From positions 3,829 through 67,828 of the IMG/VR virus record IMGVR_UViG_3300028361_000024: a stretch of DNA of 64,000 nucleotides, one strand, 5' to 3'. A program made the translations under genes and the position numbers. This DNA is from a virus. Shown here piece by piece: positions 35,460 through 63,632 of this stretch; the stretch's first letter is position 1, and each line of letters opens with the position of its first letter. A model generated the notes under the pieces. The model made no database searches. It was not told the origin of the DNA and saw only the letters and a program-made list of their open reading frames with translations.

Positions 35460-35767
35460 TAGGCTTCCTCGCTGTCTTCAGGTTCTGGATTAAGACTTGT
35501 TAAGTTGTCATCTTCTGCTACCTTACGAATGACGTATTTAGCGTCATGTGCTTCAAACTCAATTGTACCGTCTGGGGATATGGTGACATCCTCGCTATCA
35601 ACCAGATAGTCGTATCCATAGTCGCCCATGTCAACCGTAATGTAGTCGTTCTCATCCTCGCTGGAAGCAACAAGAACAGCCCCCAGGATTAGACGTTTGA
35701 AGGTCCCCTCGCTTGTGGATTTCTCTAAAATGCCCACACCCTCGTATACAAGTCGTACGTCTTTCAT
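35459..35767 (-). CDS. Small acidic hypothetical protein
   Basis: 102 aa, TAATG-coupled to giant ORF stop. Confidence 0.75.
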   Translation of the reverse strand: MKDVRLVYEGVGILEKSTSEGTFKRLILGAVLVASSEDENDYITVDMGDYGYDYLVDSEDVTISPDGTIEFEAHDAKYVIRKVAEDDNLTSLNPEPEDSEEA

Positions 35768-50940: not shown

Positions 50941-50947
50941 AATGAGC

Positions 50948-50977
50948 TTGACATATGTCAGGAAGGTGTACTAATAT
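50948..50977 (+). promoter_or_regulatory. SigA-type promoter with CAGGAAGG spacer box
   Basis: TTGACA-18nt(TATGTCAGGAAGGTGTAC)-TAATAT. Confidence 0.8.
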
Positions 50978-51023
50978 AATAACTACAAGCCACCGCAAGG
51001 GGCACAACGAAGGGGAAAACAAA

Positions 51024-51227
51024 ATGACTACTTATTCAATCCGCATCATGGCAAACGGAATCGACTTCAACTTCCACACCACTAGCGTTGCGCAGTTGCG
51101 CGAATTGTTCGCTAGTACTTACCGCACTGGGACAATGGGAGACTTCACTATCTGGGCCGACAACGAAGAGCTAGGCCGCAACCAGAAGGCAGTGCTCGCT
51201 TTTGGACAACTTGCTTACACCAACTAA
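51024..51227 (+). CDS. Small hypothetical early protein
   Basis: ATG after AACGAAGGGGAAAACAAA. Confidence 0.7.
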   Translation: MTTYSIRIMANGIDFNFHTTSVAQLRELFASTYRTGTMGDFTIWADNEELGRNQKAVLAFGQLAYTN

Positions 51228-51259
51228 CACCAACTAACACGAACGAAGGGAAAAACAAA

Positions 51260-51580
51260 ATGAAAGCAATGACCGTCTCAACAGAAGGCAACATCTCAAA
51301 GATGGAGACCATGGACCTGGCCGCGCTTCAAACCGCGGTGGGGGGCTATGTGCAAGCTGTAGACCTAGGGGATGACCTAACTATGTGGCTAAATGAGGAA
51401 GGCAAGCTAGAGGGGTTACCGCACAATGACGTCGGGCAAGTTCTATGGGATGCAACCTATGGCGCAGGCACAGACTACATCGTGGGTAACGTCGTAATAA
51501 CGGGTGGCACAGGGGAGGAAGGCGAAACCTTGCCCCTTACTGCAAGCGCCGTTTTCAAGATTATGAGGATGCTCGAATAG
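51260..51580 (+). CDS. DUF3846-like protein
   Basis: LQTAVGGYVQ...NEEGKLEGLPHN...IVGNVVITG. Confidence 0.8.
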   Translation: MKAMTVSTEGNISKMETMDLAALQTAVGGYVQAVDLGDDLTMWLNEEGKLEGLPHNDVGQVLWDATYGAGTDYIVGNVVITGGTGEEGETLPLTASAVFKIMRMLE

Positions 51581-51590
51581 TCACCGCGCT

Positions 51591-51621
51591 GAAGACCCCG
51601 TCAGAAATGGCGGGGTTTTTC
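51591..51621 (+). terminator. Intrinsic terminator
   Basis: ACCCCGTCA-GAAA-TGGCGGGGT + T run. Confidence 0.8.
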
Positions 51622-51657
51622 TGTTACCTAACCGTTACAAAGAAATGTCAGAAAGAT

Positions 51658-51687
51658 TTGACAAAGTACAGGAAGGTCTGCCATACT
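51658..51687 (+). promoter_or_regulatory. SigA-type promoter with CAGGAAGG spacer box
   Basis: TTGACA-18nt(AAGTACAGGAAGGTCTGC)-CATACT. Confidence 0.8.
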
Positions 51688-51716
51688 GTAACTACACAAC
51701 GACGAAGGGAAACAAA

Positions 51717-51848
51717 ATGACTGCAATAATCCTAAAAGATGGAGTCACCACCACCTACCACTTTGACCCTCAGCACCACGAAGCCGTAAGTGCCTTTTAC
51801 TCTGAAGCTTTTGCAAAGGGAGAAATTCAGAATTACCAACTTTACTAA
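51717..51848 (+). CDS. 43-aa hypothetical early protein
   Basis: Own promoter, RBS GAAGGGAAACAAA and terminator. Confidence 0.65.
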   Translation: MTAIILKDGVTTTYHFDPQHHEAVSAFYSEAFAKGEIQNYQLY

Positions 51849-51865
51849 ACCAACCAACAACAACC

Positions 51866-51899
51866 GAAAGCCCCCGCCGTAAAAAGCGGGGGTTTTTTT
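51866..51899 (+). terminator. Intrinsic terminator
   Basis: CCCCCGC...GCGGGGG + T7. Confidence 0.8.
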
Positions 51900-51934
51900 G
51901 TTACCTAACTGTGATAAAAACTTTCCTGACTTAC

Positions 51935-51964
51935 TTGACAAAGTGCAGGAAGGTCTGAGAGAAT
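51935..51964 (+). promoter_or_regulatory. SigA-type promoter with GCAGGAAGG spacer box
   Basis: TTGACA-18nt(AAGTGCAGGAAGGTCTGA)-GAGAAT. Confidence 0.75.
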
Positions 51965-51991
51965 GTACTTATAACAACGAAGGGACACACT

Positions 51992-52138
51992 ATCAAAACA
52001 GAAACCCGTCAGTTTTTATCGCTAGTCACACTTGCCATCTTGGGAGTCTGGTTCATAGTGACAGAGAGCCACCGCGTTGTAATCGGCTGGGCTTGGGACT
52101 TATTCGTATCATTCACCGACACCTACATAACTCTCTAA
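51992..52138 (+). CDS. 48-aa membrane peptide with ATC at the start position (non-canonical start or pseudogene)
   Basis: RBS AACGAAGGGACACACT then ATC AAA ACA...; reads IKTETRQFLSLVTLAILGVWFIV... Confidence 0.45.
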   Translation: MKTETRQFLSLVTLAILGVWFIVTESHRVVIGWAWDLFVSFTDTYITL

Positions 52139-52148
52139 GGGGGACACA

Positions 52149-52433
52149 ATGACCAAGTCTAAAAATTATGAAGTAACAATCTGGGCTGATGGATTTCGAC
52201 AATGGCACGCTAAGGCGGAGTTTTATCCCGCACTTGGCAACACAGGGGAAGCCGAGAGAATAGTAAGCAATGCCCTCAAAATGATGAAGCGAAACCTAAA
52301 GCGGATTATTGAGTATAACGACAGCGCAAGTCCTGATTATAGGTTCAAGTGGGAAGTTTGCGCGAACACCACTACACCAGGACTAGGCACTCTAAGGAGT
52401 ATCACAATCAGAGAAAAACAAACAACCGACTAA
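52149..52433 (+). CDS. Hypothetical protein
   Basis: 94 aa with AAGGGGG RBS. Confidence 0.7.
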   Translation: MTKSKNYEVTIWADGFRQWHAKAEFYPALGNTGEAERIVSNALKMMKRNLKRIIEYNDSASPDYRFKWEVCANTTTPGLGTLRSITIREKQTTD

Positions 52434-52456
52434 GGAGATAGCCAAATGAACACCGC

Positions 52457-52489
52457 GAAGCCCCCCGAGAAATTGGGGGGTTTTTCTTT
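52457..52489 (+). terminator. Intrinsic terminator
   Basis: CCCCCCGA-GAAA-TTGGGGGG + T run. Confidence 0.8.
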
Positions 52490-52499
52490 GCCCAGGTAC

Positions 52500-52529
52500 T
52501 TGACAAAGTGCAGGAAGGTATGTCATAAT
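52500..52529 (+). promoter_or_regulatory. SigA-type promoter with GCAGGAAGG spacer box
   Basis: TTGACA-18nt(AAGTGCAGGAAGGTATGT)-CATAAT. Confidence 0.82.
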
Positions 52530-52554
52530 AGAGACATAGACAGAGAGGGACACA

Positions 52555-52773
52555 ATGTACGGACTACCAGATAGCGCAATAGTAGGAACCGCAAAACGTG
52601 TTACCAGAGGAATCCGCGGGAAGCTAGTCAAGAATGACCGAGACTATGTAGAATTTCCCACCCCCTTCTGGGACATGGTGGCCGAAAAAATAGACCAAGT
52701 AGCAGAGCGCAGAATCAAAAAGCAGACTCGCAAAGCTCACTTTGAAAAGCACGGGTTCTACCCCGCAGACTAG
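52555..52773 (+). CDS. Hypothetical protein
   Basis: 72 aa with GAGAGGG RBS. Confidence 0.7.
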   Translation: MYGLPDSAIVGTAKRVTRGIRGKLVKNDRDYVEFPTPFWDMVAEKIDQVAERRIKKQTRKAHFEKHGFYPAD

Positions 52774-52787: not shown

Positions 52788-52829
52788 GAGAAAGCCCCCT
52801 AGGGTAAAAATTCCTGGGGGGCCTTCTCG
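52788..52829. terminator. Hairpin between convergent units (possibly bidirectional terminator)
   Basis: GAGAAAGCCCCCTAGG-GTAAAAATT-CCTGGGGGGCCTTCTC. Confidence 0.7.
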
Positions 52830-52861
52830 TTCCTCAAACAAACGGCGCTGCTACTACGAAT

Positions 52862-53125
52862 TTAGTCGTCGGGGTTGCTAGCTTTCGACCCAGCTTCGCC
52901 AAACACTTCGTTTATTTCAGCAAGTGATAGTTTCCCGTCCTTGAGATACGCCCGTGATAGCCCCTCAACTACTGTAGCTACTCCGCCAATCCCCGCCATC
53001 AAGAACGATTGCCAGAGCTCAACGCCCACAATCGTACCCGCTGCAACCACACTCAGTCCCGTTGCCAGGAACACAGCAACCATGCGGCCAACTATTGTTG
53101 CAACTTTTCGTGCTCTTTTTGACAT
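52862..53125 (-). CDS. Small 2-TM membrane protein, holin-like
   Basis: Basic N-terminus, two hydrophobic helices, DGKLSLAEIN tail; near transglycosylase. Confidence 0.6.
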   Translation of the reverse strand: MSKRARKVATIVGRMVAVFLATGLSVVAAGTIVGVELWQSFLMAGIGGVATVVEGLSRAYLKDGKLSLAEINEVFGEAGSKASNPDD

Positions 53126-53215
53126 GGTCTTTCCTCTCCTATTGCATCTACGCCAGACGCAGCAACGCCCAGCACTCTCTATGATAAGAGAGATACTGGG
53201 CGTTGATTTGGGGGC

Positions 53216-53812
53216 TTAGATACTTACTGTTACTGGGGTACCAGCAAAAATAGCCTGAACCAGCTTCTCGTTCGTAAGGTTATTTGATTCAAAACCGTGG
53301 TCTGCAGCAAATTCCTTGATAGCTGCAAGAGTGCCCTTGCTCAAGTACCCGCGGTTGTCTGAACCCGCGCTTACGTAACCAAGCTCCATCAACCTAACCT
53401 GAGTTACGCCAACTGAACGCGAGTTGTGCTCGTACATGCTCTCAAACACCAACTTGGTGCGTGAAACACTGATTTCAGAGCCCAGGACTGTCGGAACAGT
53501 CTTTGGCTCGGGTTTTTTACCCTTTGGTGCTGCTGCCGCAGGGGTTGGGGCTTCAACCTTCTTCTCCTTGGCAACTTCAACAACCACTTCTGGTTCTTCT
53601 TCTACTGCTGCTGCTGACGCAACGACCACTTCTGGCTCAACTGCGCGCTCAAAGTCTGTTCCATCCTGAACCAGCCCGTCGCCGTCACCATCAACCGCGC
53701 CAACTTTGAAACCTTCAGGCTTTTCGCCTACTTTGCGTTCGAACTTTGTGCCGTCTTGTACCAGCCCGTCGCCGTCACCATCTCTGGCGTTAGCTTTGAA
53801 TTTATCTGCCAT
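53216..53812 (-). CDS. Protein with two DGDGDG repeats and C-terminal peptidoglycan-binding-like domain
   Basis: DGDGDGLVQDGT twice; VGVTQVRLMELGY...GYLSKGTLAAIKEFAADHG. Confidence 0.65.
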   Translation of the reverse strand: MADKFKANARDGDGDGLVQDGTKFERKVGEKPEGFKVGAVDGDGDGLVQDGTDFERAVEPEVVVASAAAVEEEPEVVVEVAKEKKVEAPTPAAAAPKGKKPEPKTVPTVLGSEISVSRTKLVFESMYEHNSRSVGVTQVRLMELGYVSAGSDNRGYLSKGTLAAIKEFAADHGFESNNLTNEKLVQAIFAGTPVTVSI

Positions 53813-54459
53813 TACTTACCTCCTGGGTATTCTTTGTACCATGTGTGATACGAACCTGTTGTACCTCCATTATAAGCATCAGGGCCAATGCCCCATGGGC
53901 CCCAATTGGTCCCCTGTCTGCTCATCTCAAAGGCGATGCGTGCATTGACATACGGGTCAAACAAGTCTTCATAAGAAGACAACCCGTACTTCTCCATGCG
54001 TGCAACTCCAAGCTTTCCTATCATGTTGATTTGGAATAGCCCGTAGCTGTTGTCTCCCGTACTGCTGTTGCCATTGTGGGCTAAAGGATTGCCTGTGCTC
54101 TCCTTCATTGCCACGGCCCAAGCCTTACGCAGGGTGCTTTCTTCGAAACCAACACTCCTTAGCACTTCAATCAACTCTTCTTCATAAAAATGCTTCGGAA
54201 AGTCAGCAACTTCAGCAACTTCTGCAGCGGCAGCTAGTGGAATTTTTACCCCCACTTCCTCTGTTGCAGCGGCGTCTTCTTCATAACTTTGGGACCTTTG
54301 CGGCACAACCCGCTCTGATTCCTGCACTTCAATGCTTGATTCCGCAGCAATTTGACTTGCTGATGACCCAAACTTTGCGCTTGCTATCGCTGACACGCTG
54401 ATTAGTGCCAAAGTTATTCCGAACACGGTTATTTCTGCCGTTTTTCGATTGATACTCAT
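53812..54459 (-). CDS. Lytic transglycosylase (SLT/lysozyme-like) with N-terminal signal/TM segment
   Basis: AVAMKES.GNP.A.N...SYGLFQIN...LFDPYVNA...W.PW. Confidence 0.88.
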   Translation of the reverse strand: MSINRKTAEITVFGITLALISVSAIASAKFGSSASQIAAESSIEVQESERVVPQRSQSYEEDAAATEEVGVKIPLAAAAEVAEVADFPKHFYEEELIEVLRSVGFEESTLRKAWAVAMKESTGNPLAHNGNSSTGDNSYGLFQINMIGKLGVARMEKYGLSSYEDLFDPYVNARIAFEMSRQGTNWGPWGIGPDAYNGGTTGSYHTWYKEYPGGK

Positions 54460-54470
54460 AGAGTTCCTCT

Positions 54471-54881
54471 CTACGAACGTCCGTAGTACATTACGTTCTC
54501 GTCGTTCCAGTCATACGCATTGACTCCTCGACGGTACGTCTGCTTATTCTTGGGCTTACCTAAGTCCTCAAGCTCCAGCATGGTGCTCCACACTGTATGC
54601 AGCGGACGCGTAAAGTCGTGTCCTCGTGCTTGGCCAGCTCTAGTTTTATAGTTTGTGTACTTCAGGGTCTCGCCCAGCTCCACTAACCAATCAACAAACT
54701 GTTCCCGAGTCAAGAAAACACGGTGCGGGTAGTCCCTGTTCTTTAGTTGGACTATTTTTGCGTCGTACCTCTCAACGAGTGGCTTCAGCGATTCCATGTC
54801 TCGACCTCGCACAACCATCTTGTTTTTATCTTGCGGGTCCTGCACTACGCTGACGAACCCTGTTTCACTAAATAACCACAT
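54471..54881 (-). CDS. Hypothetical phage protein
   Basis: MWLFSETGFVSVV...VRGR...DYPHR...YTNYK. Confidence 0.75.
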   Translation of the reverse strand: MWLFSETGFVSVVQDPQDKNKMVVRGRDMESLKPLVERYDAKIVQLKNRDYPHRVFLTREQFVDWLVELGETLKYTNYKTRAGQARGHDFTRPLHTVWSTMLELEDLGKPKNKQTYRRGVNAYDWNDENVMYYGRS

Positions 54882-54883
54882 TT

Positions 54884-55039
54884 TTACCTCTGTTCTCTCG
54901 CGGAAAGCACCGCGCTAATAATTCCTATGAACCCTGCTGCTAGAACCCAGAGTTCGTTACCTAAAATGGCTGACACCAAGATGCCAACAGCTGCAACAGC
55001 GGAGATAACCGATGTCCACACTACGTTTTGTAGCTTCAT
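54884..55039 (-). CDS. 51-aa membrane protein (not in ORF track)
   Basis: MKLQNVVWTSVISAVAAVGILVSAILGNELWVLAAGFIGIISAVLSAREQR; TGATG-coupled to upstream HTH gene. Confidence 0.65.
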   Translation of the reverse strand: MKLQNVVWTSVISAVAAVGILVSAILGNELWVLAAGFIGIISAVLSAREQR

Positions 55040-55230
55040 CAGCTCCTCTTCTTGTCTGGACGAGTTCGTCCCACTAGACGGGCGTGGGGGTCACGCAACA
55101 CAACACCTTGGGCAAAGATTGCCTTCCGTGCTGTTCTGTATGCAACTCCCAGTTGTTTCGCCACTGCTTCAAGGGCTAGGCCCTCTTCATACAACTTGGC
55201 GGCTTCTTCTGCGATTTTTTCGCTTTTCAT
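55039..55230 (-). CDS. Small helix-turn-helix DNA-binding protein
   Basis: LYEEGLALEAVAKQLGVAYRTARKAI..GVVLR. Confidence 0.8.
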   Translation of the reverse strand: MKSEKIAEEAAKLYEEGLALEAVAKQLGVAYRTARKAIFAQGVVLRDPHARLVGRTRPDKKRS

Positions 55231-55256
55231 TCTGTCTTTTCCTCTTTCTATTGTCT

Positions 55257-55451
55257 TTATTGAGTAATAAAGTCTTTACACCAAAGGCTCATCTCTTCGA
55301 AAGGGACTTTGCACGCTTCAGGGGTGCCTAGTTCGGTCGCAACGGCCCATAGGGCAATAAACATTGCGAGTAAGGTCCACCCAATAAATAACCTACCGCG
55401 TCGGGTAAGCCTAATAGAGAGCTTGTGCTCGATTGCTTCGAAGAGGTCCAT
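55257..55451 (-). CDS. Small membrane protein
   Basis: RLTRRGR followed by a TM helix. Confidence 0.65.
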   Translation of the reverse strand: MDLFEAIEHKLSIRLTRRGRLFIGWTLLAMFIALWAVATELGTPEACKVPFEEMSLWCKDFITQ

Positions 55452-55481
55452 TATTTGTCCTTTTGTCCTTTGAATAATGCA

Positions 55482-55510
55482 AGACTAGCACACCTTCCTG
55501 CATAATGCAA
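55482..55510 (-). promoter_or_regulatory. Promoter with GCAGGAAGG spacer box
   Basis: TTGCAT-17nt(TATGCAGGAAGGTGTGC)-TAGTCT. Confidence 0.75.
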
Positions 55511-55528
55511 GAAGGTTGGCAAAAAGGA

Positions 55529-55783
55529 TTACTTAGTGCGTAACGCAATCAGACTGCGCAAAACTTCTTCTAGCTTGTCTGCGCTGTTGAAATGGCTCTT
55601 GTGCGAAATGTCTTCCTCTTCAATGAGCCTGTCAAGAGATAGAACCGCGATGTGGCCCTCTTGCTCGAACATCACAACAAGTTTGGTTTCCCCGTCATTG
55701 GGGTCATCAATGATGCTTGCTGTAAATGGGGACGCTGTCCCGTTTGAATGGGTGTCAATGGCTAAGATGACTGGCTCTAACAT
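55529..55783 (-). CDS. Hypothetical protein (probably leaderless)
   Basis: 84 aa; TAAACT-6nt-ATG. Confidence 0.7.
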   Translation of the reverse strand: MLEPVILAIDTHSNGTASPFTASIIDDPNDGETKLVVMFEQEGHIAVLSLDRLIEEEDISHKSHFNSADKLEEVLRSLIALRTK

Positions 55784-55965
55784 GCAATTAGTTTACTGCG
55801 AGCGCCGACCTTTGATTGGCAGACCACACACTTCTCCCCCCGAGAGAGAGGGAGGAGATGTGCGGGGAAAGGTAGAACCCCTCATCGCAAGCAGCGAGGC
55901 GAACTCCAGCAACTTGCGGCACCTCAAGGATACCTAAATTTTTACCCCTGTATTGCCGCCAGGAA

Positions 55966-56001
55966 AAGAAAAAGGCCCCCAGCAAGGAGGCCTTTCTTCT
56001 T
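55966..56001 (-). terminator. Intrinsic terminator
   Basis: AAAGGCC(C/T)CC stem flanked by A and T runs. Confidence 0.7.
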
Positions 56002-56011
56002 CAGCTGGCTG

Positions 56012-56227
56012 CTATTCGTCTACAATCCCAACATCATTGGCAGCTTCGAGGACATCCCACCCGTAATGCTCGCCCATCCAGACGGCAGCAATCCTAATTG
56101 CGAAGTCGTCATCTTTCTCAGCTTCTTGCCGTAGCACTTCATCGAGCTGAACTGTTGTCATCAGCGTGAAGTAATCCCCCACGAAGACCACTGTTCGGGT
56201 CAAAGCTACCTTGTCTACTGTGTCCAT
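56012..56227 (-). CDS. Hypothetical protein
   Basis: 71 aa, GAAGGG RBS. Confidence 0.65.
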   Translation of the reverse strand: MDTVDKVALTRTVVFVGDYFTLMTTVQLDEVLRQEAEKDDDFAIRIAAVWMGEHYGWDVLEAANDVGIVDE

Positions 56228-56230
56228 TTT

Positions 56231-56362
56231 TTACCCTTCTAGTTGTCGCGTTGTCGCTATGAAAAAAGATGCCATCACCAGCAAGGTGAATGTCATCAAA
56301 CTCATTGGCTGAATAGAAAGCCCAACTCCCAGGAGAGTTGAGCCCACCACCAATTTTGTCAT
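56231..56362 (-). CDS. 43-aa hydrophobic peptide (not in ORF track)
   Basis: MTKLVVGSTLLGVGLSIQPMSLMTFTLLVMASFFIATTRQLEG fills the gap between co-oriented genes. Confidence 0.5.
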   Translation of the reverse strand: MTKLVVGSTLLGVGLSIQPMSLMTFTLLVMASFFIATTRQLEG

Positions 56363-56367
56363 CAGGT

Positions 56368-56604
56368 CTAGTCTCTTCCCAGTTGTTCCGAAATGCGCTC
56401 TTGTGTGATGCCCTGCGCCTTCATCAGCTTTGTCCAGAGTACTCCTGCTGCTGCGTACTTGTCCATCTTCTGGAACATCCTGTCCATGCTCTCATCCTTG
56501 TACATCTTGTGGCGTGACACCTCCAAGTTGCTAAGGGTTACGTAGATAGACATGGCTTCCGCTAACATCTCTACTTCTTGACTATCCAGTTCAAACTTGT
56601 CCAT
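56368..56604 (-). CDS. Hypothetical protein
   Basis: 78 aa, GGGAGG RBS. Confidence 0.7.
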   Translation of the reverse strand: MDKFELDSQEVEMLAEAMSIYVTLSNLEVSRHKMYKDESMDRMFQKMDKYAAAGVLWTKLMKAQGITQERISEQLGRD

Positions 56605-56630
56605 TGTGTCCTCCCTCTGTTGAATACTTC

Positions 56631-56659
56631 ATGGTAGCACCTTCCTGCTGTCTTCGCAA
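56631..56659 (-). promoter_or_regulatory. Promoter with GCAGGAAGG spacer box
   Basis: TTGCGA-17nt(AGACAGCAGGAAGGTGC)-TACCAT. Confidence 0.72.
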
Positions 56660-56745
56660 GTACATTCGAATAACTTTTTACCCTGAGCCAGAAACACGAA
56701 ACCCCTCCCGAAGGGGAGGGGGAGGGGCTTCGCTTTGGGGGAAGA

Positions 56746-57081
56746 CTACTTCGGCATTAGTACCGTGTAGTCAGTCACAGTCTGTGTGGCTGTGAACGCT
56801 TCTGGGAACAACTTCTCCAGTAGTTTGCGGTCAGTCCCTGCACGGCTACGGCTACTAACTTCAATCCGCACGATGCCATCAACGGTAACAACCTCAGCGT
56901 TGCCAATCAATGCCTTGACCTGCTCTTCTAGTGCCTTCTTGGTCTTCTCCAAGTCGGTTACTGCCCTACGAGTTGCAAGGTAGTCGTTGAGAAGAATGCG
57001 AGATTCTCCTTCAAACTCCACCGAAACCTGCTCGGTGATGATTTCCTGAACTACCTTGTTGATTACTTGGGTGGTTGTCAT
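56746..57081 (-). CDS. Hypothetical coiled-coil protein resembling the C-terminal part of YqaJ-type proteins
   Basis: LEKTKKALEEQVKALIG...DRKLLEKLFPEAF. Confidence 0.65.
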   Translation of the reverse strand: MTTTQVINKVVQEIITEQVSVEFEGESRILLNDYLATRRAVTDLEKTKKALEEQVKALIGNAEVVTVDGIVRIEVSSRSRAGTDRKLLEKLFPEAFTATQTVTDYTVLMPK

Positions 57082-57163
57082 AACAATCACTCTTTCTTTA
57101 TGTCATTTACCCAGAGAGGCTATCTCGCTGGGTGTTGAGGAGGCTATCTCTTCAACTAGTATT

Positions 57164-57192
57164 ACTTTATAGCACCTACCTGCACTTGTCAA
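57164..57192 (-). promoter_or_regulatory. Promoter with GCAGGTAGG spacer box
   Basis: TTGACA-17nt(AGTGCAGGTAGGTGCTA)-TAAAGT. Confidence 0.8.
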
Positions 57193-57228
57193 GCCCATTC
57201 TGAAAGTTTTTATAACAAATTTATAACG

Positions 57229-57429
57229 CTAGACAGACCACAACAACTTTTCGTCTTTGTAGAGCTTGTCAATCACGTCCTGCGCTTTCACGGGTTGCGG
57301 GGTAGCGCTTCTTCTTATGATGGTCTCAATCCAAGTATCTAGATTTTTTACCCCAATGATTTCGAACTTCTCCGCATCGGTCTTGCTGTGCCAAGCTTCG
57401 ATTATTTCGTCTGCATCTAGGGTAGCCAT
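57229..57429 (-). CDS. Hypothetical protein
   Basis: 66 aa, coupled. Confidence 0.65.
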   Translation of the reverse strand: MATLDADEIIEAWHSKTDAEKFEIIGVKNLDTWIETIIRRSATPQPVKAQDVIDKLYKDEKLLWSV

Positions 57430-57632
57430 CAGTCTTTTTTCTCTAAAGCGTCAATAAGTTTGTCTAACTCAACTCGGACATCGTGGTACGCGCCCAATGA
57501 ACCGTGCGCATACTTTACTTCCAACGGGTTGTGCCTGAACTGTTCTGAGAGCCTGGCAGCAAGTTCCGCTTTTCCTATGACCCAGCCCTTTAGCTCACGC
57601 AAATCTTTCAAATTCTGTACGTTCTTACTCAT
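57429..57632 (-). CDS. Hypothetical protein
   Basis: 67 aa, GAGG RBS. Confidence 0.65.
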   Translation of the reverse strand: MSKNVQNLKDLRELKGWVIGKAELAARLSEQFRHNPLEVKYAHGSLGAYHDVRVELDKLIDALEKKD

Positions 57633-57669
57633 TAGTTTTCCTCTTTCATTAGTGTTTGTCTGTTGTCGT

Positions 57670-57771
57670 TTAGCATTTTCCGCATACTTTTCCGTGCGTG
57701 TACTCTCGTTCCTCGCAAGAGAATTGCTCTCCGCAAGTCCAGCAGTGAATCCAGATAAGTTGTTTTGTCAT
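57670..57771 (-). CDS. 33-aa Zn-ribbon peptide
   Basis: CWTC...CGKC after AAGGAG RBS. Confidence 0.6.
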   Translation of the reverse strand: MTKQLIWIHCWTCGEQFSCEEREYTHGKVCGKC

Positions 57772-57799
57772 CTCTGTCTCCTTTGTCGTTCTAGAAAGT

Positions 57800-57828
57800 A
57801 GTATTACATTTACCTGCATAAAAAGCAA
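57800..57828 (-). promoter_or_regulatory. Promoter with GCAGGTAA spacer box
   Basis: TTGCTT-17nt(TTTATGCAGGTAAATGT)-AATACT. Confidence 0.65.
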
Positions 57829-57970
57829 GCGAATTTGCAAACTAATTTTTAGCGTGTCGGAGAAAGGGAAAGCCCCCGCAAAAAAATCTACGGGGGCGTC
57901 CTGTCTCTTGGGTTTGCGGTTGGACACGGCTGGGAAGGACGATACGCTCAACCAAGAGGTCTATGGAAGG

Positions 57971-59761
57971 TTAGGCGGTGTTCCGCCTACCTACGTTTGT
58001 AAGTGCTGCTGATGCGGCTCGTCCAATCTCAGACGCTGCTGTTGTCGGGTCTAGCTCTCCCTCAAGAATAGTAATGTTCTGACTTCTAACTAGGCCCTTC
58101 ACAGTGTATCCACCATCGAATGGCAACCACAGGACGGCCACACCTGACTCGCCGCAACGTTTTATCCACTCTCTTGCGTGTTTGCGTTGGTCTGAGCGAT
58201 AGTGGCCATCGGAAACAACTACCAGCAATCGTGCGCCATCTCCCCTCAACAGGTTCAATGCACCATCAAGAGCCCTGAACGCTGTATCGAATTCTTCAGT
58301 TGAGTCGTGGGCACCATAAATTTTTACCTCACTGAGATACTCACCTGGCTTCAATGTCGGAAAGACTGAATCTCCGTAGTAAACAATCGCTGTTCGCCCG
58401 TGGACTCGTCTAACTGCCTCGCTAAGCACATACGCTGTAACCGCCATAGGCTTCATCGCGTAGTGCATTGACCCAGAGATGTCCACCATCACTCCAACAG
58501 TCAGGTTGGGGTCGTCAGTCTGCCTGCGAACAGTCTTCTTCCAGGGCTCAACCTCTTGATGCACCCCGCGTGCCCTCATGGCATTGCGCTGAACCAGGGC
58601 CCTTGTCCGCAAGCGCCCAGGCGGCGTGTTAGAGCTAATCTCAACCTGGGACCTGTCGCGGTACTTAGCCTGCTCCAGCATCCTCGCAACAACAACAGCT
58701 GCTCGGCGTTCTTCAGCAAGTGGGGGCCGCGTGCTCTCCAGGCGTGACCTAGTAGTTTTTTTACCCCCGTGAGAGCCCTTGGTGAATACTTCCTTTGCTG
58801 CTTCTTCGTTTAGCTGCTTCTCTTCAGACTTTCTCTGCTTTATTTCGACCTGTTCTCGCCAATCCTCTTTAGTCTCCTGGTCTGTCAAGTCATCAGTAGT
58901 CGAAATAATTACCGAAGACCTCAAATCCTCCATCGCATCCTGCATCGCATTCTGGAACTCGGCGCTCGCGGGCTGTGGGTTCTCTGCCGCTTCCTCGGGG
59001 CTCGGGTCATTGTTCTCTTTCGCGGCCTCACGAACCAGCTTCGCCCACTCCCGTGCTAGTGGGTAGAGAGCCTCGGCATTGCTGTGCTGTGCGTGAGCCT
59101 GGAACCTGCGTGCCACATCCCTGAGCTTCTCAACGATGCGTGGCTGAAGATAGGTATCAACCAGTTTTATCAGCTCAGTCGCTTCTTTCTCCTGCAAGAT
59201 GCCTGCGTCAATGCGTGCATGAAGTAAAGCAACCAATGTAGCTGCGGAGTATGTGTTGGGCTGCGCGGCAAAGGCTTCCTGCGAATCAGCAATCACCAGG
59301 TCCATCGCACAGGCTCGTAAGAAATTTTTACCCTCTGGCCGCACGATGATTCCCTGTGCCTCAATCCGTCCTTCCTCCAGCAACATCATGGATTTGAATT
59401 CGTCAGGCTTCAGGGCCTTCCGCGCTTCTTCCATACTCCAGTGCGAGAATCGTGCATGAAAGGCTTCGTGTATTACTGCGCCTGTTGCCTTGGCGAACTC
59501 ATACTGCGTAGCCCGCATGTTGAAGTCGCCTATAAGGCTTGGCTTCACACCAGCAAATACTTGATTGGTGGATACCTGAATCTCAGCAAGCTTGGGGTTG
59601 AAGGCTGCTGGGGCTCCGCCTGAGACCTCTGGGCCAATGTGCGCAACGATGTCGTGGCGGTCAGCCCATGTGTTAGCAAGCTCGCCAATGCTGCGTCCTA
59701 CTGCGAACCACTCTGGAGAGGGCTTACCCAATCCATTTGATGAATAGTCGATGTGTGCCAT
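57971..59761 (-). CDS. CobT-like protein: N-terminal HEXXH domain + C-terminal VWA (MIDAS) domain
   Basis: IHEAFH...LEEGRIE; VDISGSM; VVVSDG. Confidence 0.85.
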   Translation of the reverse strand: MAHIDYSSNGLGKPSPEWFAVGRSIGELANTWADRHDIVAHIGPEVSGGAPAAFNPKLAEIQVSTNQVFAGVKPSLIGDFNMRATQYEFAKATGAVIHEAFHARFSHWSMEEARKALKPDEFKSMMLLEEGRIEAQGIIVRPEGKNFLRACAMDLVIADSQEAFAAQPNTYSAATLVALLHARIDAGILQEKEATELIKLVDTYLQPRIVEKLRDVARRFQAHAQHSNAEALYPLAREWAKLVREAAKENNDPSPEEAAENPQPASAEFQNAMQDAMEDLRSSVIISTTDDLTDQETKEDWREQVEIKQRKSEEKQLNEEAAKEVFTKGSHGGKKTTRSRLESTRPPLAEERRAAVVVARMLEQAKYRDRSQVEISSNTPPGRLRTRALVQRNAMRARGVHQEVEPWKKTVRRQTDDPNLTVGVMVDISGSMHYAMKPMAVTAYVLSEAVRRVHGRTAIVYYGDSVFPTLKPGEYLSEVKIYGAHDSTEEFDTAFRALDGALNLLRGDGARLLVVVSDGHYRSDQRKHAREWIKRCGESGVAVLWLPFDGGYTVKGLVRSQNITILEGELDPTTAASEIGRAASAALTNVGRRNTA

Positions 59762-59886
59762 CTGTTGTCCTTCCAATTTTTTACCCCGTGTCCAGCGGGC
59801 AATTTGAACTTATTATAGAAACCACTGGGTGTCAACCTTAGGCGAGAGAAGAGAGGACACCCATGCACCCTCTCCTCCCGTTCCAG

Positions 59887-60918
59887 CTAGATTTTTGCTG
59901 GCTTTACTTCTTGAGGAAATACTTTCCCCAAGACATCTGCGACTACTGGCCTGTCCATCTCTGGAGTGGCGGCAAGTAAGTTTGAAATCGCCCACTCTGT
60001 CCCAAAAAGCTCTTCCGTGCTCTTGAAGGCAAGTAGTTCACGCATCTGAGGGGCCCAGGACGTTTCTCCGCTCAACATACGCTTAGAAAGGTTCTGCGCT
60101 CCAGTAACCAATCCTGTGGGGACTCCCATCAAGCGGGCCCTGCTCCAGTCCGTAGTCATCTCTGCTTGCACTGTGAACCTGGAGAGTAACGCCTCGCTTA
60201 GCCGCACTCCAGGGGCATTTGGGTTGGTCGCCGCAACCACGTAGAAGTCTTCGTGTGCTTTCACCTTCCCGCGCTCTGGATTTGCCGTGACAACAAGTTC
60301 TCGACGCCCATCCATCAGCCCGTAGACAATGGACAGCACTTTGGGGTCAATCAAGCCAACCTCGTCGATGAAATAGACGCCGCCAGTCTCTGCCGCTCGA
60401 ACCAGGTCGCCGTCAATCCACTCAAAGCCGCCGCTTGGTGTCTGAACATAGCCGCCAACCAGGTCAGCAACCTCCGTGTCGCCCGTTCCCATCAAAGTGA
60501 AGGTATCGGGGAAGGCTGCTTCAATCAAAGCTGTCTTTCCACATCCAGGGGCTCCGTAAAGCAAAGCAAACATAGCTGAGCCCCCTTGTCCAGTGAAAGC
60601 CTTCGTAGTTTGGCCGCGTGCCTGGCGCAAAACTGTTACGTCAGTGTGAGCGCCCCAGGGGCGGGCATAGTAGATGTCGCCATTTGGGCGGACGTACTCG
60701 TTCTCGCCTCCCATGTTATTTGCGCCTACCATCTTCTTGCTTTTATACGGGGCTCGCTCGGAACCTGACGCACGGGACACATACCTACCCTGCGGTGTCA
60801 CAAGACTGCTAAGCAGTATGCCCGCGTCTGGGTTCACGCCCTGCGCAACAACATTCTCGACCATCTCCCAGTACCCTTCGCCAATGGCCTGGTACCTCTT
60901 CCGCATTGAATCTTCCAT
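59887..60918 (-). CDS. MoxR-type (CobS/CbbQ/NorQ-like) AAA+ ATPase
   Basis: YGAPGCGKT, DLVG, WIDG, FIDE, ATNP, ALLSRF. Confidence 0.9.
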   Translation of the reverse strand: MEDSMRKRYQAIGEGYWEMVENVVAQGVNPDAGILLSSLVTPQGRYVSRASGSERAPYKSKKMVGANNMGGENEYVRPNGDIYYARPWGAHTDVTVLRQARGQTTKAFTGQGGSAMFALLYGAPGCGKTALIEAAFPDTFTLMGTGDTEVADLVGGYVQTPSGGFEWIDGDLVRAAETGGVYFIDEVGLIDPKVLSIVYGLMDGRRELVVTANPERGKVKAHEDFYVVAATNPNAPGVRLSEALLSRFTVQAEMTTDWSRARLMGVPTGLVTGAQNLSKRMLSGETSWAPQMRELLAFKSTEELFGTEWAISNLLAATPEMDRPVVADVLGKVFPQEVKPAKI

Positions 60919-60923
60919 AATTT

Positions 60924-61400
60924 TTACCCCTCAGCCTTCAGTGGTTCGGGAAATCCCAAAGCCTTTCGCGCCAAATCCACTCGGTACATGAATTTGCTCG
61001 GTGTTTTTTCAACAAAAATGTCGTCCATGTCTTTCTTGGAGATTTCAATCAGCAAGGGACTCTTCACCATCTCCCACCCGCTTAGCAGCATTGTGTTGAA
61101 CCACACAGTGACCTTCTCAAGGCGGGCCTCACCGTGAGCCTGTACGTGTTTGTTAGGAAGGTTTTCCGATGAGTTGGGCTCCCACTCTAAAATTGGCTGT
61201 GTGACGCTCTCCAAGAAGGTGGCGTTCCACTGCTTCTTTGGGTTCTCTAAGGTCGTAATCCGACGATACATAGAAGCGCGCACAACCATGTTCTCCGTTG
61301 TGTAGCCATCAGGTGTAAAGATGACTTGCATCAAGGATTCAGGTTTAGTCCACTCGGCGTAAACAGCAACGCCTTGGACATCTTTCTCTTCTGTAGCCAT
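60924..61400 (-). CDS. Hypothetical protein, first gene of the MoxR operon
   Basis: 158 aa, between promoter and ATPase. Confidence 0.75.
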   Translation of the reverse strand: MATEEKDVQGVAVYAEWTKPESLMQVIFTPDGYTTENMVVRASMYRRITTLENPKKQWNATFLESVTQPILEWEPNSSENLPNKHVQAHGEARLEKVTVWFNTMLLSGWEMVKSPLLIEISKKDMDDIFVEKTPSKFMYRVDLARKALGFPEPLKAEG

Positions 61401-61457
61401 GGGTGTCTTCTTTCTTTTTGTCTTTGTCTTTATTTTTACCCCTAAGGGCAGAACAAA

Positions 61458-61486
61458 AGTATCGCATCACTTTCCTGCAATGTCAA
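61458..61486 (-). promoter_or_regulatory. Promoter with GCAGGAAAG spacer box
   Basis: TTGACA-17nt(TTGCAGGAAAGTGATGC)-GATACT. Confidence 0.78.
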
Positions 61487-61631
61487 GCCACATCCAAAAG
61501 TTCTTTTGAAGTTGCTCCTAACTGCGAGCGCCGTGCAAATCTACGCAAAAGCACTAAGTGGGCAGTTTTATCGCGACATACCCAGGTCGGTTTTTGACGG
61601 GGAACGACACCCATCAAACTTATTTTTACCC

Positions 61632-61919
61632 TTAGAACTCTTCGTACTTGCTTAGGTCAACGCCGTATCGGTCAAAGGCGGCTCGTAGCCCAGCTTCGTC
61701 TGCCTCTGGCTCGTACGACTCTGTAATGAGCCGTGCGACTATCGGTCTGAAGATGTCAGGCGTATCTTCAATAATGTCCCAGTCCACTTCGTTCCAGTAG
61801 GTGGTCTCCATCAGCACATAGCCTTCGGCGTTGCCGTAGCTCCCATCAGCAGCAAAGTAGCTCAATACTTTCTGGAGTGGCTTTGGTGCTCTCTTGCGCT
61901 TGAACTTTCCTTTTGGCAT
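61632..61919 (-). CDS. Hypothetical protein
   Basis: 95 aa, YFAADGSYGNA...W motif. Confidence 0.7.
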   Translation of the reverse strand: MPKGKFKRKRAPKPLQKVLSYFAADGSYGNAEGYVLMETTYWNEVDWDIIEDTPDIFRPIVARLITESYEPEADEAGLRAAFDRYGVDLSKYEEF

Positions 61920-62024
61920 TATTTGCTACCTTTCGCTGAATAGTCTTGATTGCCTTCGCATACATTGCAGAAGGGTGTGCAGTCGAAACTCCCTTGGTGG
62001 TTGGGGCACACTACCCGTGCCATT

Positions 62025-62297
62025 CTATGCCTCCTTCTCAAGTGCTAGGCCGAACCCCAGAACAAGAGCGACAACGTCTTCCTCGTCAAAGGCATCCCAG
62101 TACTCTTCAGTCTTGCGGGCAAAGCGCTCCCACTCGTCCTGAGACATCTCTAGGCGGTAGCCGTGAGTACTAATAGCTTCTTCTACAAAGTCCTTAGTCC
62201 AGACGGCACAGGCTACGGTTTCGTTGCCAAGTCCTCTACCCTCTAAGGCCTGAAAATACTCACGCCACTCTGTGACGCTGTTCTGGTAACTCTTCAT
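62025..62297 (-). CDS. Hypothetical protein
   Basis: ATG after GAAGGAG RBS. Confidence 0.7.
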   Translation of the reverse strand: MKSYQNSVTEWREYFQALEGRGLGNETVACAVWTKDFVEEAISTHGYRLEMSQDEWERFARKTEEYWDAFDEEDVVALVLGFGLALEKEA

Positions 62298-62329
62298 CGT
62301 GTCTCCTTCGTTCGTTGCGATGTAGTTAT

Positions 62330-62358
62330 ACATTATTGCATTTACCTGCACTTGTCAA
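62330..62358 (-). promoter_or_regulatory. Promoter with GCAGGTAA spacer box
   Basis: TTGACA-17nt(AGTGCAGGTAAATGCAA)-TAATGT. Confidence 0.78.
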
Positions 62359-62460
62359 GTCAAGCTCCAAAGAAAGTTTTTACCTGGATAAGCAGCAATC
62401 TGCAAGCGCTGTCCCTGTCTAAATTTTTACCCCTGCGCATCAGTCATCTGATTTCGGGCA

Positions 62461-62506
62461 GAAAAAAACGCGGGCCCTAAGGGGGTGGGCCCGCGTTCTT
62501 TTTTTC
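62461..62506 (-). terminator. Intrinsic terminator
   Basis: AACGCGGGCCC...GGGCCCGCGTT with A7 and T runs on either side. Confidence 0.82.
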
Positions 62507-62512
62507 GGGGTG

Positions 62513-62983
62513 TTAGGCAGTTACCTCAATCTCAAACGGTGCCTCGGCCTCGAAGCCGAATACGGTGCGGAAAAGGTCGCGCCCGTCATACCACTCTGAC
62601 CAGTAGCCGTCTGAGCTAATCTCAACGGCATCGGTGTAGCAATCCTTGAGCCATAGCAACACAGCTACAACAACGGTGTCATAAGGCTTCTCGGCGGTCT
62701 TGCAAAAGTCAAACAGCATTGGCTGTCCCGCGGCGTGCGCTGGTTGGCTCGATACTACGGCGTCCCAAGCGAATGTCTCGTGTGCGTCGTCGCCCATACC
62801 ATTGAAAGCTACGCGGGTCTCGCTAATCTCGGGTGTGGTTGACTCGCCAAACGCGTCTCCGATTTCAATGCCGCGGGTCTTAGCCTCGGCAAAAATCTTT
62901 TCAACGCCATTTGTGAATCTCAGGTAAGCGCCTGGCCCACTTGAGCGAACTATGTCTCTTCTAATGTAGTGTGTATATCCCAT
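62513..62983 (-). CDS. Hypothetical phage protein (MGYTHY...FNG...HETF...FCKT..KPYD...SSDG type)
   Basis: Recognisable recurring phage family pattern; RBS present. Confidence 0.78.
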   Translation of the reverse strand: MGYTHYIRRDIVRSSGPGAYLRFTNGVEKIFAEAKTRGIEIGDAFGESTTPEISETRVAFNGMGDDAHETFAWDAVVSSQPAHAAGQPMLFDFCKTAEKPYDTVVVAVLLWLKDCYTDAVEISSDGYWSEWYDGRDLFRTVFGFEAEAPFEIEVTA

Positions 62984-63035
62984 TTTTGTGTCTCTTTCGT
63001 TTGTCGTTCTGGCTCCATCTAGTGGAGATAGTGAA

Positions 63036-63064
63036 ACTCTATAATACTTTTTTACTAATGTCAA
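63036..63064 (-). promoter_or_regulatory. SigA-type promoter lacking the GCAGG box; -35 element duplicated
   Basis: TTGACA-17nt-TAGAGT; tandem 10-bp TTGACATTAG. Confidence 0.6.
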
Positions 63065-63070
63065 CTAATG

Positions 63071-63208
63071 TCAACTATTTTCTTTTAGCGTGTCGAAGAA
63101 TGCGTCTGACTCTTCGTAGTAGCGGTCCATAACCATCTCGTGCGTGGCTTCCTCACCCTCTGGCAAGTCTCGCTGAATCTTTTCCATACGTTCTACGTAT
63201 CCGCGCAT
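63071..63208 (-). CDS. 45-aa hypothetical protein (not in ORF track)
   Basis: MRGYVERMEKIQRDLPEGEE...; GAGGG RBS. Confidence 0.55.
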   Translation of the reverse strand: MRGYVERMEKIQRDLPEGEEATHEMVMDRYYEESDAFFDTLKENS

Positions 63209-63210
63209 CT

Positions 63211-63393
63211 CTACGCCCTCTTAACAACCAAGAGCTGGCCTAAGCCCGTGCCCAGTTGGCGGTTTGTGTATGTGGACCAGTGAGCGGTGCAAAGATACGC
63301 CCACGCGCCAGAAACAATCGCGGCGTCGTATTGGGCCCTGTCCTCGCAAAAATTGCATCGTGGAAGTGTGCTAACCACTACTTTGTCTGACAT
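63211..63393 (-). CDS. Small Zn-finger protein
   Basis: CNFC...YDA...WAYLCTAH...LGTGLGQ. Confidence 0.72.
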   Translation of the reverse strand: MSDKVVVSTLPRCNFCEDRAQYDAAIVSGAWAYLCTAHWSTYTNRQLGTGLGQLLVVKRA

Positions 63394-63401
63394 TTTTACC
63401 C

Positions 63402-63632
63402 CTAACCTACGTAGCTTTCGCCCGTGTAGTCTCGTTTTTCTTGGCAAGCGGGGCAGGCCCACTCGCCCCACTCTTCTCCGTTGTAGGCGGACAAGTCAAT
63501 CTCGATGTCTTGGTCTTGCTCAAACATCGCGCAGTCGTTGTTCCAGCACTGAACCACGCGTTCACCCGTGTATTCAATGTCTGGGCCAGCAATCTGATAC
63601 TCGCTACCAGTCACGCCCGCTGGGTAGTTCAT
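63402..63632 (-). CDS. Small Zn-ribbon protein
   Basis: NYPAGVTG...IAGP, CWNNDC...WACPAC. Confidence 0.72.
   Translation of the reverse strand: MNYPAGVTGSEYQIAGPDIEYTGERVVQCWNNDCAMFEQDQDIEIDLSAYNGEEWGEWACPACQEKRDYTGESYVG

Follow-up and report, generated by a model that had tools for sequence, protein, structure and literature searches.

The 64-kb stretch of DNA analysed here (the window) forms the end of a 67.8-kb IMG/VR virus contig, IMGVR_UViG_3300028361_000024 (positions 3,829 to 67,828; CheckV completeness 51%), and one block of its genes is studded with a nine-letter word, GGGTAAAAA, that almost always points in the direction of transcription. The question raised by this locus is whether the word is a by-product of composition, a ribosome-binding site, a promoter, or a site at which a dedicated factor acts, and in the last case whether that factor reads DNA or RNA. 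The analyses support a word that is real, polar, selected for and more than a ribosome-binding site. As for its function, an oriented docking site on DNA, similar to the stoperators of other actinophages, is tentatively put forward as the best explanation.

Abundance, orientation and distribution of the word

Exact matches to GGGTAAAAA number 18 in the window, whereas dinucleotide-preserving shuffles average 0.54 and never exceed 3 (0 of 100 reached 18); 17 of the 18 lie on the minus strand. Above 52.8 kb the minus strand carries 14 exact copies and three with one mismatch, all of them AGGTAAAAA (highest coordinates 54889, 58329 and 62385), while the plus strand of the same block holds none except a single GGGTAAAAA at 52802-52810 in a terminator loop. 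In the block the most frequent 8-mer is the core GGTAAAAA, which occurs 17 times on the gene strand and 0 times on the opposite strand; the remaining 52.8 kb has 6 on the same strand. The tally is thus 17 copies in the block against 3 in the other 52.8 kb, where these 3 are exact GGGTAAAAA matches on the same strand. As that DNA is itself mostly minus-strand coding, coding-strand composition does not explain the excess.

An earlier note, written from the letters alone, had reported about 17 minus-strand copies and one plus-strand copy, which agrees with this count, and both the enrichment and the strand bias that it proposed to check are borne out. Its coordinates are right to within 1-11 bases. 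The copies that it listed are real, although 59778-59786 and 62377-62385 were omitted, and of the four outside matches described as weaker only 33428-33436 is so, with one mismatch; those at 13753, 35969 and 50127 are exact.

Genes, promoters and terminators are throughout ORF-based (open reading frame) or pattern predictions. According to the ORF map and PHROG/Pfam matches, a minus-strand run from 50.3 to 1.8 kb encodes portal, major head, tape measure, tail fibre, DNA polymerase and helicase. Small plus-strand ORFs form a short run at 50.4-52.8 kb, beyond which lies the word-bearing minus-strand block from 64.0 to 52.86 kb. The latter comprises ~27 mostly small genes, the larger products being an AAA_5 ATPase, a 595-amino-acid (aa) VWA (CobT-like) protein and an SLT lysozyme-like protein. 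The converging plus and minus runs meet at a bidirectional terminator hairpin (52794-52822). The block is presumably early, being rich in sigma-A-like promoters, terminators and small ORFs.

Megablast against deposited phages found no close DNA relatives, the sole distant match being Actinomycetia phage DSL-LC01 (L091, OQ999401.1) at the ATPase gene. Relatives were instead reached through the VWA protein, a marker family with >1700 matches whose longest contigs measure 128-136 kb; 80 loci at 46-81% identity were fetched for comparison, and five complete relatives were used (G001, G002 and G004 among them). The host is an actinobacterium, to judge from the WhiB genes (2-3 per genome in 5/5 complete relatives) and of the recorded source of DSL-LC01 ('Actinomycetia bacterium'), the only deposited relative. 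Block restriction recurs in G002, with 18 of 19 copies at 59.7-77.9 kb, and in G001, with 22 of 25 at 95.1-116.5 kb. In the complete relatives the word-bearing block spans 15-20 kb (18-21 kb in G002 and G001) and sits inside the contig. This position gives no support to the guiding or protection of first-injected DNA proposed in the earlier note, the contig ends not necessarily being physical ends. Orientation ratios range from 6:1 to 24:4 in most relatives and are weaker in the L085/L089 clade (17:7 and 18:8).

Conservation and selection

In each of six close contigs retrieved via the VWA protein, the gene strand has 6-15 exact copies and the opposite strand 1-2. Conservation in relatives, which the earlier note had named as a check, was clearly visible in whole-block alignments with the sister clade (76-78% identity), in which 16 of the 18 window copies recur. 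Eleven match 9/9 in the same alignment column of relative L012, and five more have a copy at the same spot after an alignment slip of 1-8 nucleotides (nt), or only in relative L011; two (63401 and 53522; copies are named by their highest coordinate) are lost. Copies 60929, 54251 and 55947 are kept 9/9 though their 80 flanking bases are only 39-60% identical. The best-conserved copies are those away from starts, and start-linked copies turn over between sister clades. The three copies in the VWA gene keep their position in the sister clade but not in clades at 50-56% protein identity, which indicates that density rather than exact position is preserved over the long range.

Selection is also apparent within coding sequence. 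Six interior copies are seen against 0.24 expected, a ~25-fold excess, in synonymous shuffles that keep the proteins and the codon usage of the block (0 of 3000 reach 6). Consequently, the enrichment described in the earlier note survives a codon-aware null.

A separate observation concerns the 158-aa gene at 60924-61400 (minus strand), which shares only 38% identity with the L012 version, compared with 81-88% for its neighbours. Copies 61441 and 60929 flank the divergent allele, whose borders are possibly a recombination seam.

A family-wide element with clade-specific spellings

To judge from the fetched loci, the word is the local spelling of a strand-oriented element with the core GTAAAAA, which is shared across a family of ~130-kb lake actinophages and marks the borders of genes in a single block of small genes. 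In each of the 80 loci, the most frequent 8-mer with a strand bias in the region belongs to a small set of words. The consensus is aggGGTAAAAAttt in the window's clade and, in other clades, gAGGTAAAAAat, AGCAAAAAGTAAAAA, tandem GTAAAAAGTAAAAA (L081 clade, as heptamer repeats), ata.ata..agaGGGGTAAAAA (L085 clade) and tctAtata..AAgGGGAAAAA (L045). The spelling classes that share the same placement are RGGGTAAAAA, GAGGTAAAAA, AGCAAAAAGTAAAAA, tandem GTAAAAAGTAAAAA and GGGGAAAAA, and the spelling groups distinguished are GGG/AGG, A5GTA5 and tandem GTAAAAA. AGGGGTAAAAATTT, A5GTA5 (in the L036 and L072 clades) and the tandem form (GTAAAAA in the 127-kb record G005) represent parallel spellings of the element. 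Some clades have other words instead, namely ccTGATATAATag, ATTTGACA or the palindrome TAGTAGCA.

The spelling classes are clustered on a quick VWA-protein tree, requiring 15 changes against 44.6 for shuffled labels. On this tree the TGnTATAAT class forms one clade, DSL-LC01 included, and 15 of the 16 AAG loci fall in one clade. GGG and AGG interleave, so that position 1 is simply R. As far as sequence comparison goes, GGGTAAAAA, AGGTAAAAA, A5GTA5 and tandem GTAAAAA are one element of one phage family. Concerted re-spelling at ~20 sites per genome, with placement unchanged, points to one common trans-acting reader.

Placement of the pooled copies

Pooling yielded 259 non-redundant GGGTAAAAA sites, and 163 and 226 of two other spellings; as these are drawn from related contigs, they are not independent. 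The 259 sites include 50 stop-plus-start junctions, 37 starts only, 36 positions after a stop only and 94 other intergenic positions. A further 42 (16%) lie within coding sequence that runs through them, a situation found at 39% of random positions; conversely, 84% have no ORF reading through, against 61%. Of the 259 sites, 80 (31%) have within -1..+12 an ATG that opens at least 30 codons (12% at random; 31-33% across the GTAAAAA words). The ATG stands at offset -1 or 0 in 56/259, 45/163 and 60/226 sites of the three spellings (22-28%). By textbook anti-Shine-Dalgarno reasoning, pairing of GGGGU or GAGGU with the 16S 3' end plus an A spacer of 5-6 nt would require such a sharp offset. In 52 of the 259 sites a gene with 40 codons or more stops at the word's own TAA. 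With copies inside coding sequences and in intergenic DNA, and about two thirds of them away from starts, the earlier statement that the motif is not just a ribosome-binding site holds.

At 42 of the 259 sites (16%) the end of a terminator lies 0-60 nt upstream, which holds for 2.2% of random positions. Inspection by eye showed that many of these post-terminator copies have a sigma-A-type promoter 15-110 nt downstream, and therefore lie upstream of the next transcription start. The order terminator, word, promoter was seen, again by eye, at 56683, 62432 and 62385 in the window and in relatives L020 (5211 and 5752), L011 (4628) and L055 (6022). Two window copies lie 16-25 nt behind predicted promoters, and some copies are located in hairpin loops.

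Reversed copies are also found. A ~330-aa Cys-rich gene bears one near its 3' end in 8 of the 9 lineages examined, and in L021 it is kept in a different reading phase. This conserved protein, encoded at L014:1403-2386 (~2.4-3.4 kb past the window end) and by its orthologues, has a forward copy at its start and a weak match to a terminase small subunit (phrog_2538, E 0.0025). Among the GGGTAAAA copies listed for the L085 clade, 18 are forward and 10 reversed; none of the latter is at an ATG, and most of them lie between plus-strand genes according to our own reading of the ORF list. L085 also contains convergent pairs of the word 30 nt apart. A second recurrent word, (A)ACGGCGAG(CGC) or ACGGCGTG, was observed in relatives L018, L016, L020, L085, L081, L031 and L082, where it often adjoins the GTAAAAA word or occupies spacers behind terminators.

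Promoter and leader words of sister clades as internal controls

Sister clades possess a true promoter, TGATATAAT, with 20 of its 22 copies in G004 lying in the orthologous block, and a true leader word, ACGRVGRAAGGA, which is followed by a start codon in 78/78 cases and has no reverse copy. With these as internal controls, the two simplest readings of the GTAAAAA word are excluded. As positive control, TGATATAAT gives a Shine-Dalgarno peak at +14..+23 and an ATG peak at +27..+35, whereas the GTAAAAA words give neither peak at +14..+35. No conserved partner bases were found around the word from -25 to -3 or beyond +3, and only in the GGGGAAAAA clade does a sigma-A promoter keep a constant distance from it. 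The word was rejected as a positional equivalent of TGATATAAT, since it lies upstream of 17/123 orthologues of promoter-bearing genes against 57/229 of others; the positional equivalents in GTAAAAA lineages are instead TTGACA-N17-TAnnnT, for example before the VWA and 158-aa genes. It was likewise rejected as a sigma-A extended -10 element (TGn-TAnnnT), because the base at -7 would be A and only 52% of sites have T at position 10, and as a pure ribosome site, about a third of copies being at starts against 78/78 for ACGRVGRAAGGA.

DSL-LC01 contains no GTAAAAA word; TGTTATAAT occurs there 17 times and ACGACGAAAGGA 15 times. The block of its TGnTATAAT clade consists of repeated units of extended -10 promoter, leader ACGACGAAAGGA, 6 nt and ATG, and the extended -10 promoter TTCTAAAGATGTTATAAT has 16 copies in DSL-LC01. 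In relatives L020, L011, L010, L050 and L055 the sigma-A-type promoters of the block share, by eye, an extended form TTGACAaatgtcag, with a AAAAAACTTTT tract resembling an UP element ~10 nt upstream.

What may read the word

The explanation that we favour, though tentatively, is that the word is an oriented DNA docking site for a trans-acting factor, stoperator-like in its logic, which doubles as Shine-Dalgarno sequence plus spacer at tight gene junctions. A single sequence-specific factor would dock on DNA at each copy and act orientation-dependently on transcription through the block, in the manner of a stoperator or roadblock. Its role would be the control of one gene block in an apparently virulent phage, e.g. 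shut-off of early genes or blocking of read-through. At junctions, the 5' half (GGGGU or GAGGU) would pair with the anti-Shine-Dalgarno sequence and the A5 run would serve as spacer, with the ATG at -1 or 0; in so tightly packed a genome, junction copies must serve translation too. Oriented docking on DNA fits best with the lack of a fixed register, the near-constant orientation, the sites that should be poorly transcribed and the reversed sites. We infer accordingly a DNA-level element whose effect would be a polar block and whose reader would be phage-encoded. A tyrosine integrase was detected in 0/5 complete relatives (control positive in 14/14 genomes; serine integrases and gp71 homologues not searched). 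Together with the filling of a single block, this argues for block control rather than lysogenic silencing, so the silencing suggested in the earlier note is unlikely if meant in the lysogenic sense of true stoperators.

The putative reader is only a candidate, namely a 63-aa helix-turn-helix (HTH) protein encoded in the block in 5/5 complete relatives. Its recognition helix is YRTARKA where the lineage has GTAAAAA, and YGKARKL in the TGnTATAAT lineages. The structural model has a mean pLDDT (predicted local distance difference test score) of 78.6. Foldseek against the PDB returned no match at E <= 0.001; the best sub-threshold rows were DNA-binding HTH domains of DeoR, IstA and resolvases, and a profile search gave weak matches to the HTH of IS21 transposases.

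Several points weigh against docking on DNA. The docking protein is still a candidate, and nothing ties the HTH protein to the word: it is a core gene, present also in the word-less lineage G004, and L033 retains the helix YRTARRA while lacking the word, so that the covariation of helix and word may be plain phylogeny. The 17:0 strand bias and the Shine-Dalgarno-plus-A-rich make-up would fit an RNA-level reader equally well. The tandem 7-nt repeats of the L081 clade are more typical of single-strand recognition, although ribbon-helix-helix proteins that bind heptads exist. True stoperators are genome-wide and belong to temperate phages, whereas the copies here fill one block of integrase-negative relatives. 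In the L085 and L045 clades a TAWATA stands exactly 6 nt upstream, which looks like promoter geometry. Finally, the promoters, terminators and genes invoked are predictions and the pooled sites are not independent.

The alternative of an RNA-level site, in which the transcript would be read as GGGGUAAAAAU by an RNA-binding repressor or by an endoribonuclease that inactivates the mRNAs of the block, is doubtful but deserves weight. T4 offers two comparisons, RegA, which binds start regions of mRNAs, and RegB, which cuts early mRNAs in Shine-Dalgarno regions made up of GGAG and an A-rich stretch. The gene-strand bias, the 5' half complementary to the anti-Shine-Dalgarno sequence with an A-rich tail behind it, the sharp ATG offset, the confinement to one presumably early block, the tandem heptamers of one clade and the copies in hairpin loops would all be expected of such a site, and there is a close analogy with the T4 RegB sites (GGAGRAYARAA, early, intergenic; PMC1702504). 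Copies between a terminator and the next promoter and the conserved reversed copies speak against it, as do the absence of the invariant GGA of RegB sites and the fact that only about a third of copies are at starts; a RegB homologue (PF10715) was found in 0/5 complete relatives, in a search run without a positive control.

A phage-specific promoter or initiator is unlikely. On this view the word would be a single-element promoter, or the conserved start region of such a promoter, used by an altered host RNA polymerase or by some phage factor that escaped recognition, and would form a second promoter class on top of the sigma-A promoters. The middle and late promoters of T4 are promoter classes laid over others in this way. 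The word follows predicted terminators as often as TGATATAAT does (28/68 against 14/41), is block-specific and co-oriented with genes, and at the 158-aa and 84-aa genes takes the position that TGATATAAT has in other clades, 29-44 nt ahead of the ATG. In two clades, L085 and L045, TAWATA or TATGTATA exactly 6 nt upstream would put the G-run at +1, and 2-3 WhiB-like factors are encoded per relative. Yet a -35 element is absent, as is any partner at constant spacing, the TAAAAA hexamer lacks the -7 T, position 10 is too often not T, and placement differs from that of TGATATAAT. An ATG at -1 or 0 leaves no room for a start site of that gene, and convergent pairs lie 30 nt apart in L085. A Sigma70_r2 domain was found in 0/5 relatives and a T7-type polymerase in 0/5, the latter in a search without positive control. 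Least probable, and indeed improbable, is a word with no dedicated reader: a favoured strong ribosome site (Shine-Dalgarno, A5 spacer and stop) spread by cassette recombination, the off-start copies being relics or recombination seams comparable to the PeSL cassette borders of T4-type phages (see below). Looser versions of the same design, e.g. TAAGGGATAAAAATG and TAGGGGGCAATAAAAATG, do occur at the ATPase junction of other clades, and the word's TAA ends a gene at 52 of the 259 sites. In addition, sister clades differ in their start-linked copies, ~5 of the 14 breakpoints in homology between window and L012 fall (by eye) no more than 45 nt from a copy, and the divergent 158-aa gene is bounded by two copies. 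Against this stand the two thirds of copies away from starts, so different from ACGRVGRAAGGA, the superior conservation of exactly these copies and the excess of interior coding copies over the codon-aware null; relics, moreover, would not be re-spelled in concert.

Relation to known systems

A full-text literature search for GGGTAAAAA yielded no description of it among the top matches, judged by title and abstract. The PeSL (promoter-early stem-loop) cassettes of T4-type phages consist of small early genes split by stem-loops and repeated words, and are swapped among relatives. The present block is similar in its small, presumably early genes, stem-loops, repeated regulatory words and gene swaps at borders; it differs in that the repeated word is not the promoter, the sigma-A-type promoters being elements of their own.

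The analogues named in the earlier note, stoperators and start-associated sequences, are the right neighbourhood. Cluster A stoperators are described in PMC9283540 as asymmetric 13-mers in >20 copies, in short intergenic spaces and with an orientation tied to the direction of transcription; for L5 gp71 and the TipsytheTRex repressor they are spread over the whole genome and bound by the monomeric two-domain immunity repressor of a temperate phage. Measured against that description, the word is likewise short and asymmetric, present in ~20 copies (17-25) in an actinobacterial phage, oriented with transcription (17:0 in the window block), and spelled differently between related phages. A siting mostly in short intergenic spaces, and also at promoters, may be shared as well, although 16% of the pooled sites lie inside coding sequence. 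Unlike those stoperators it is limited to one block, belongs to an apparently virulent phage (tyrosine integrase in 0/5 relatives), is shorter (9-14 nt), has a Shine-Dalgarno-like half, touches a start codon in about a third of copies and has only a candidate repressor.

The start-associated sequences (SAS) and extended SAS (ESAS) of Cluster K, as presented in PMC3203893, are asymmetric, occur in 11-19 copies of one orientation in the non-structural half, have a Shine-Dalgarno core and sometimes include the upstream stop; their function is untested. The word shares the single orientation, the restriction to the non-structural part, the Shine-Dalgarno core and the occasional upstream stop codon. 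In contrast to SAS, virtually all of which lie 3-7 bp before a start in that account, it is at a start in 31-45% of cases, against 12-26% at random. The true SAS-like word of the phage family is ACGRVGRAAGGA of other clades. T4 RegB sites, as described in PMC1702504, are 11-nt sequences in single-stranded RNA, GGAGRAYARAA, with an invariant GGA and an A-rich tail, intergenic, early and usually Shine-Dalgarno sequences. GGGGUAAAAAU resembles them in its G-rich head and A-rich tail, and differs from them in having GGG(G)U without GGA and in copies upstream of promoters and on the opposite strand.

Individual copies and neighbouring features

The block copies, classed by our own ORF calls, comprise four that touch a start codon (63401, 60929, 56236 and 54889), in three of which the upstream gene ends with the word's TAA, and one directly after a stop codon (61631). 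Two lie in 5' leaders behind TTGACA-type promoters (61441 and 59786), four behind terminator hairpins (62432, 62385, 56683 and 55947) and six inside coding sequence (59333, 58766, 58329, 57353, 54251 and 53522). Service to non-canonical ATT or ATA starts was considered and rejected by eye: immediate stops follow at 62432 and 55947, and at 61441 the extension is out of frame in L012. The opposite-strand copies L009 10590 and L012 12115 map to about window position 52820, an offset calculated by hand from alignment anchors.

Table 1. Copies of the word in and next to the block, and the candidate reader gene, in window coordinates
Feature	Coordinates	Strand	Context	Conservation
GGGTAAAAA	63393..63401	-	Gene junction; upstream TAG directly before; ATG (63393) overlaps last A	
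GGGTAAAAA	62424..62432	-	29 nt behind hairpin + T7 run (~62462-62495, by eye), upstream of next promoter	9/9 kept in L011 and L012
AGGTAAAAA	62377..62385	-	TAAAAA 17 nt after TTGCAG; ends 18 nt upstream of predicted TTGACA-17-TAATGT promoter (-35 start 62358)	Present in L011
GGGTAAAAA	61623..61631	-	Directly after TAA of ORF 61632-61919	Same-spot copy in L011
GGGTAAAAA	61433..61441	-	16 nt behind predicted TTGACA-17-GATACT promoter; 32 nt before ATG 61400 (158-aa gene)	Same-spot copy in L012, there behind terminator
GGGTAAAAA	60921..60929	-	TAA is stop of ORF 60924-61400; AAA_5 ATPase ATG (60918) 2 nt later	9/9 conserved, flank identity only 39%
GGGTAAAAA	59778..59786	-	VWA (CobT-like) 5' leader, between predicted TTGACA-17-TAAGTT promoter and GGAAGGA Shine-Dalgarno	
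GGGTAAAAA	59325..59333	-	Inside VWA coding sequence, read as GGT AAA AAT	
GGGTAAAAA	58758..58766	-	Inside VWA coding sequence, variable linker	
AGGTAAAAA	58321..58329	-	Inside VWA coding sequence, read as GTA AAA ATT	
GGGTAAAAA	57345..57353	-	Inside ORF 57229-57429	
GGGTAAAAA	56675..56683	-	19 nt behind terminator 56702-56721; 15 nt upstream of predicted -35 (TTGCGA at 56659, 17 nt, TACCAT)	
GGGTAAAAA	56228..56236	-	TAA is stop of ORF 56231-56362; ATG 56227 directly next	
GGGTAAAAA	55939..55947	-	Behind terminator 55969-55997	
63-aa HTH protein (candidate reader), basic tail (RDP..RLVGRTRP)	55039..55230	-		Conserved
AGGTAAAAA	54881..54889	-	TAA is stop of ORF 54884-55039; ATG 54881 overlaps last A	
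GGGTAAAAA	54243..54251	-	Inside SLT lysozyme-like gene, N-terminal linker	9/9 kept, flanks 39% identical
GGGTAAAAA	53514..53522	-	Inside ORF 53216-53812	Not conserved in sister clade
GGGTAAAAA	52802..52810	+	Loop of bidirectional terminator hairpin 52794-52822, closing both converging blocks	
GGGTAAAAA	50127..50135	-	Outlying exact copy inside ORF 49804-50301, just beyond block	9/9 in L012

In the VWA leader (59787-59800, minus strand) a short element ccgctGGACAcgg, with a GGACA core, lies between promoter and Shine-Dalgarno sequence in most clades, and may be a conserved leader RNA or operator. The plus-strand mini-block at 50395-52773, in which one ORF is a DUF3846 gene, carries no copy of the word except that in its terminator loop; it contains units of ~120 bp, especially at 51596-51998, with several recurrences in the window and in relatives L009, L012 and L013. 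Two large ORFs lie between the portal and major head genes, both on the minus strand: 35767-45423 (3218 aa), whose sole domain is a DEDD exonuclease (RNase_T) at residues 1232-1394, and 30264-35174 (1636 aa), whose C-terminal half has portal-like and protease-like PHROG matches. A domain search of these two virion-module ORFs found no polymerase domain.

Implications for the phage family

Dispersed oriented words are known from few cultured actinophages, as stoperators, whose mechanism is partly known, and as start-associated sequences of untested function. The comparable signal described here comes from a very large uncultured family of ~130-kb freshwater actinophages, for whose annotators the word is a marker of the block. 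It would be a further step, and a somewhat doubtful one, to conclude that virulent actinophages use stoperator logic without lysogeny. On that proposal, a small phage protein would silence or insulate one whole block of early genes through ~20 oriented docking sites, word and reader would co-evolve by clade, and the word would serve at the same time as stop, Shine-Dalgarno sequence and spacer. With its natural spelling variants, and with the built-in contrast of sister clades that carry a plain extended -10 promoter and a pure leader word, the family is suited to the study of how one regulator may control a gene block in a lytic phage, and of how a cis-acting word and its reader may co-evolve.

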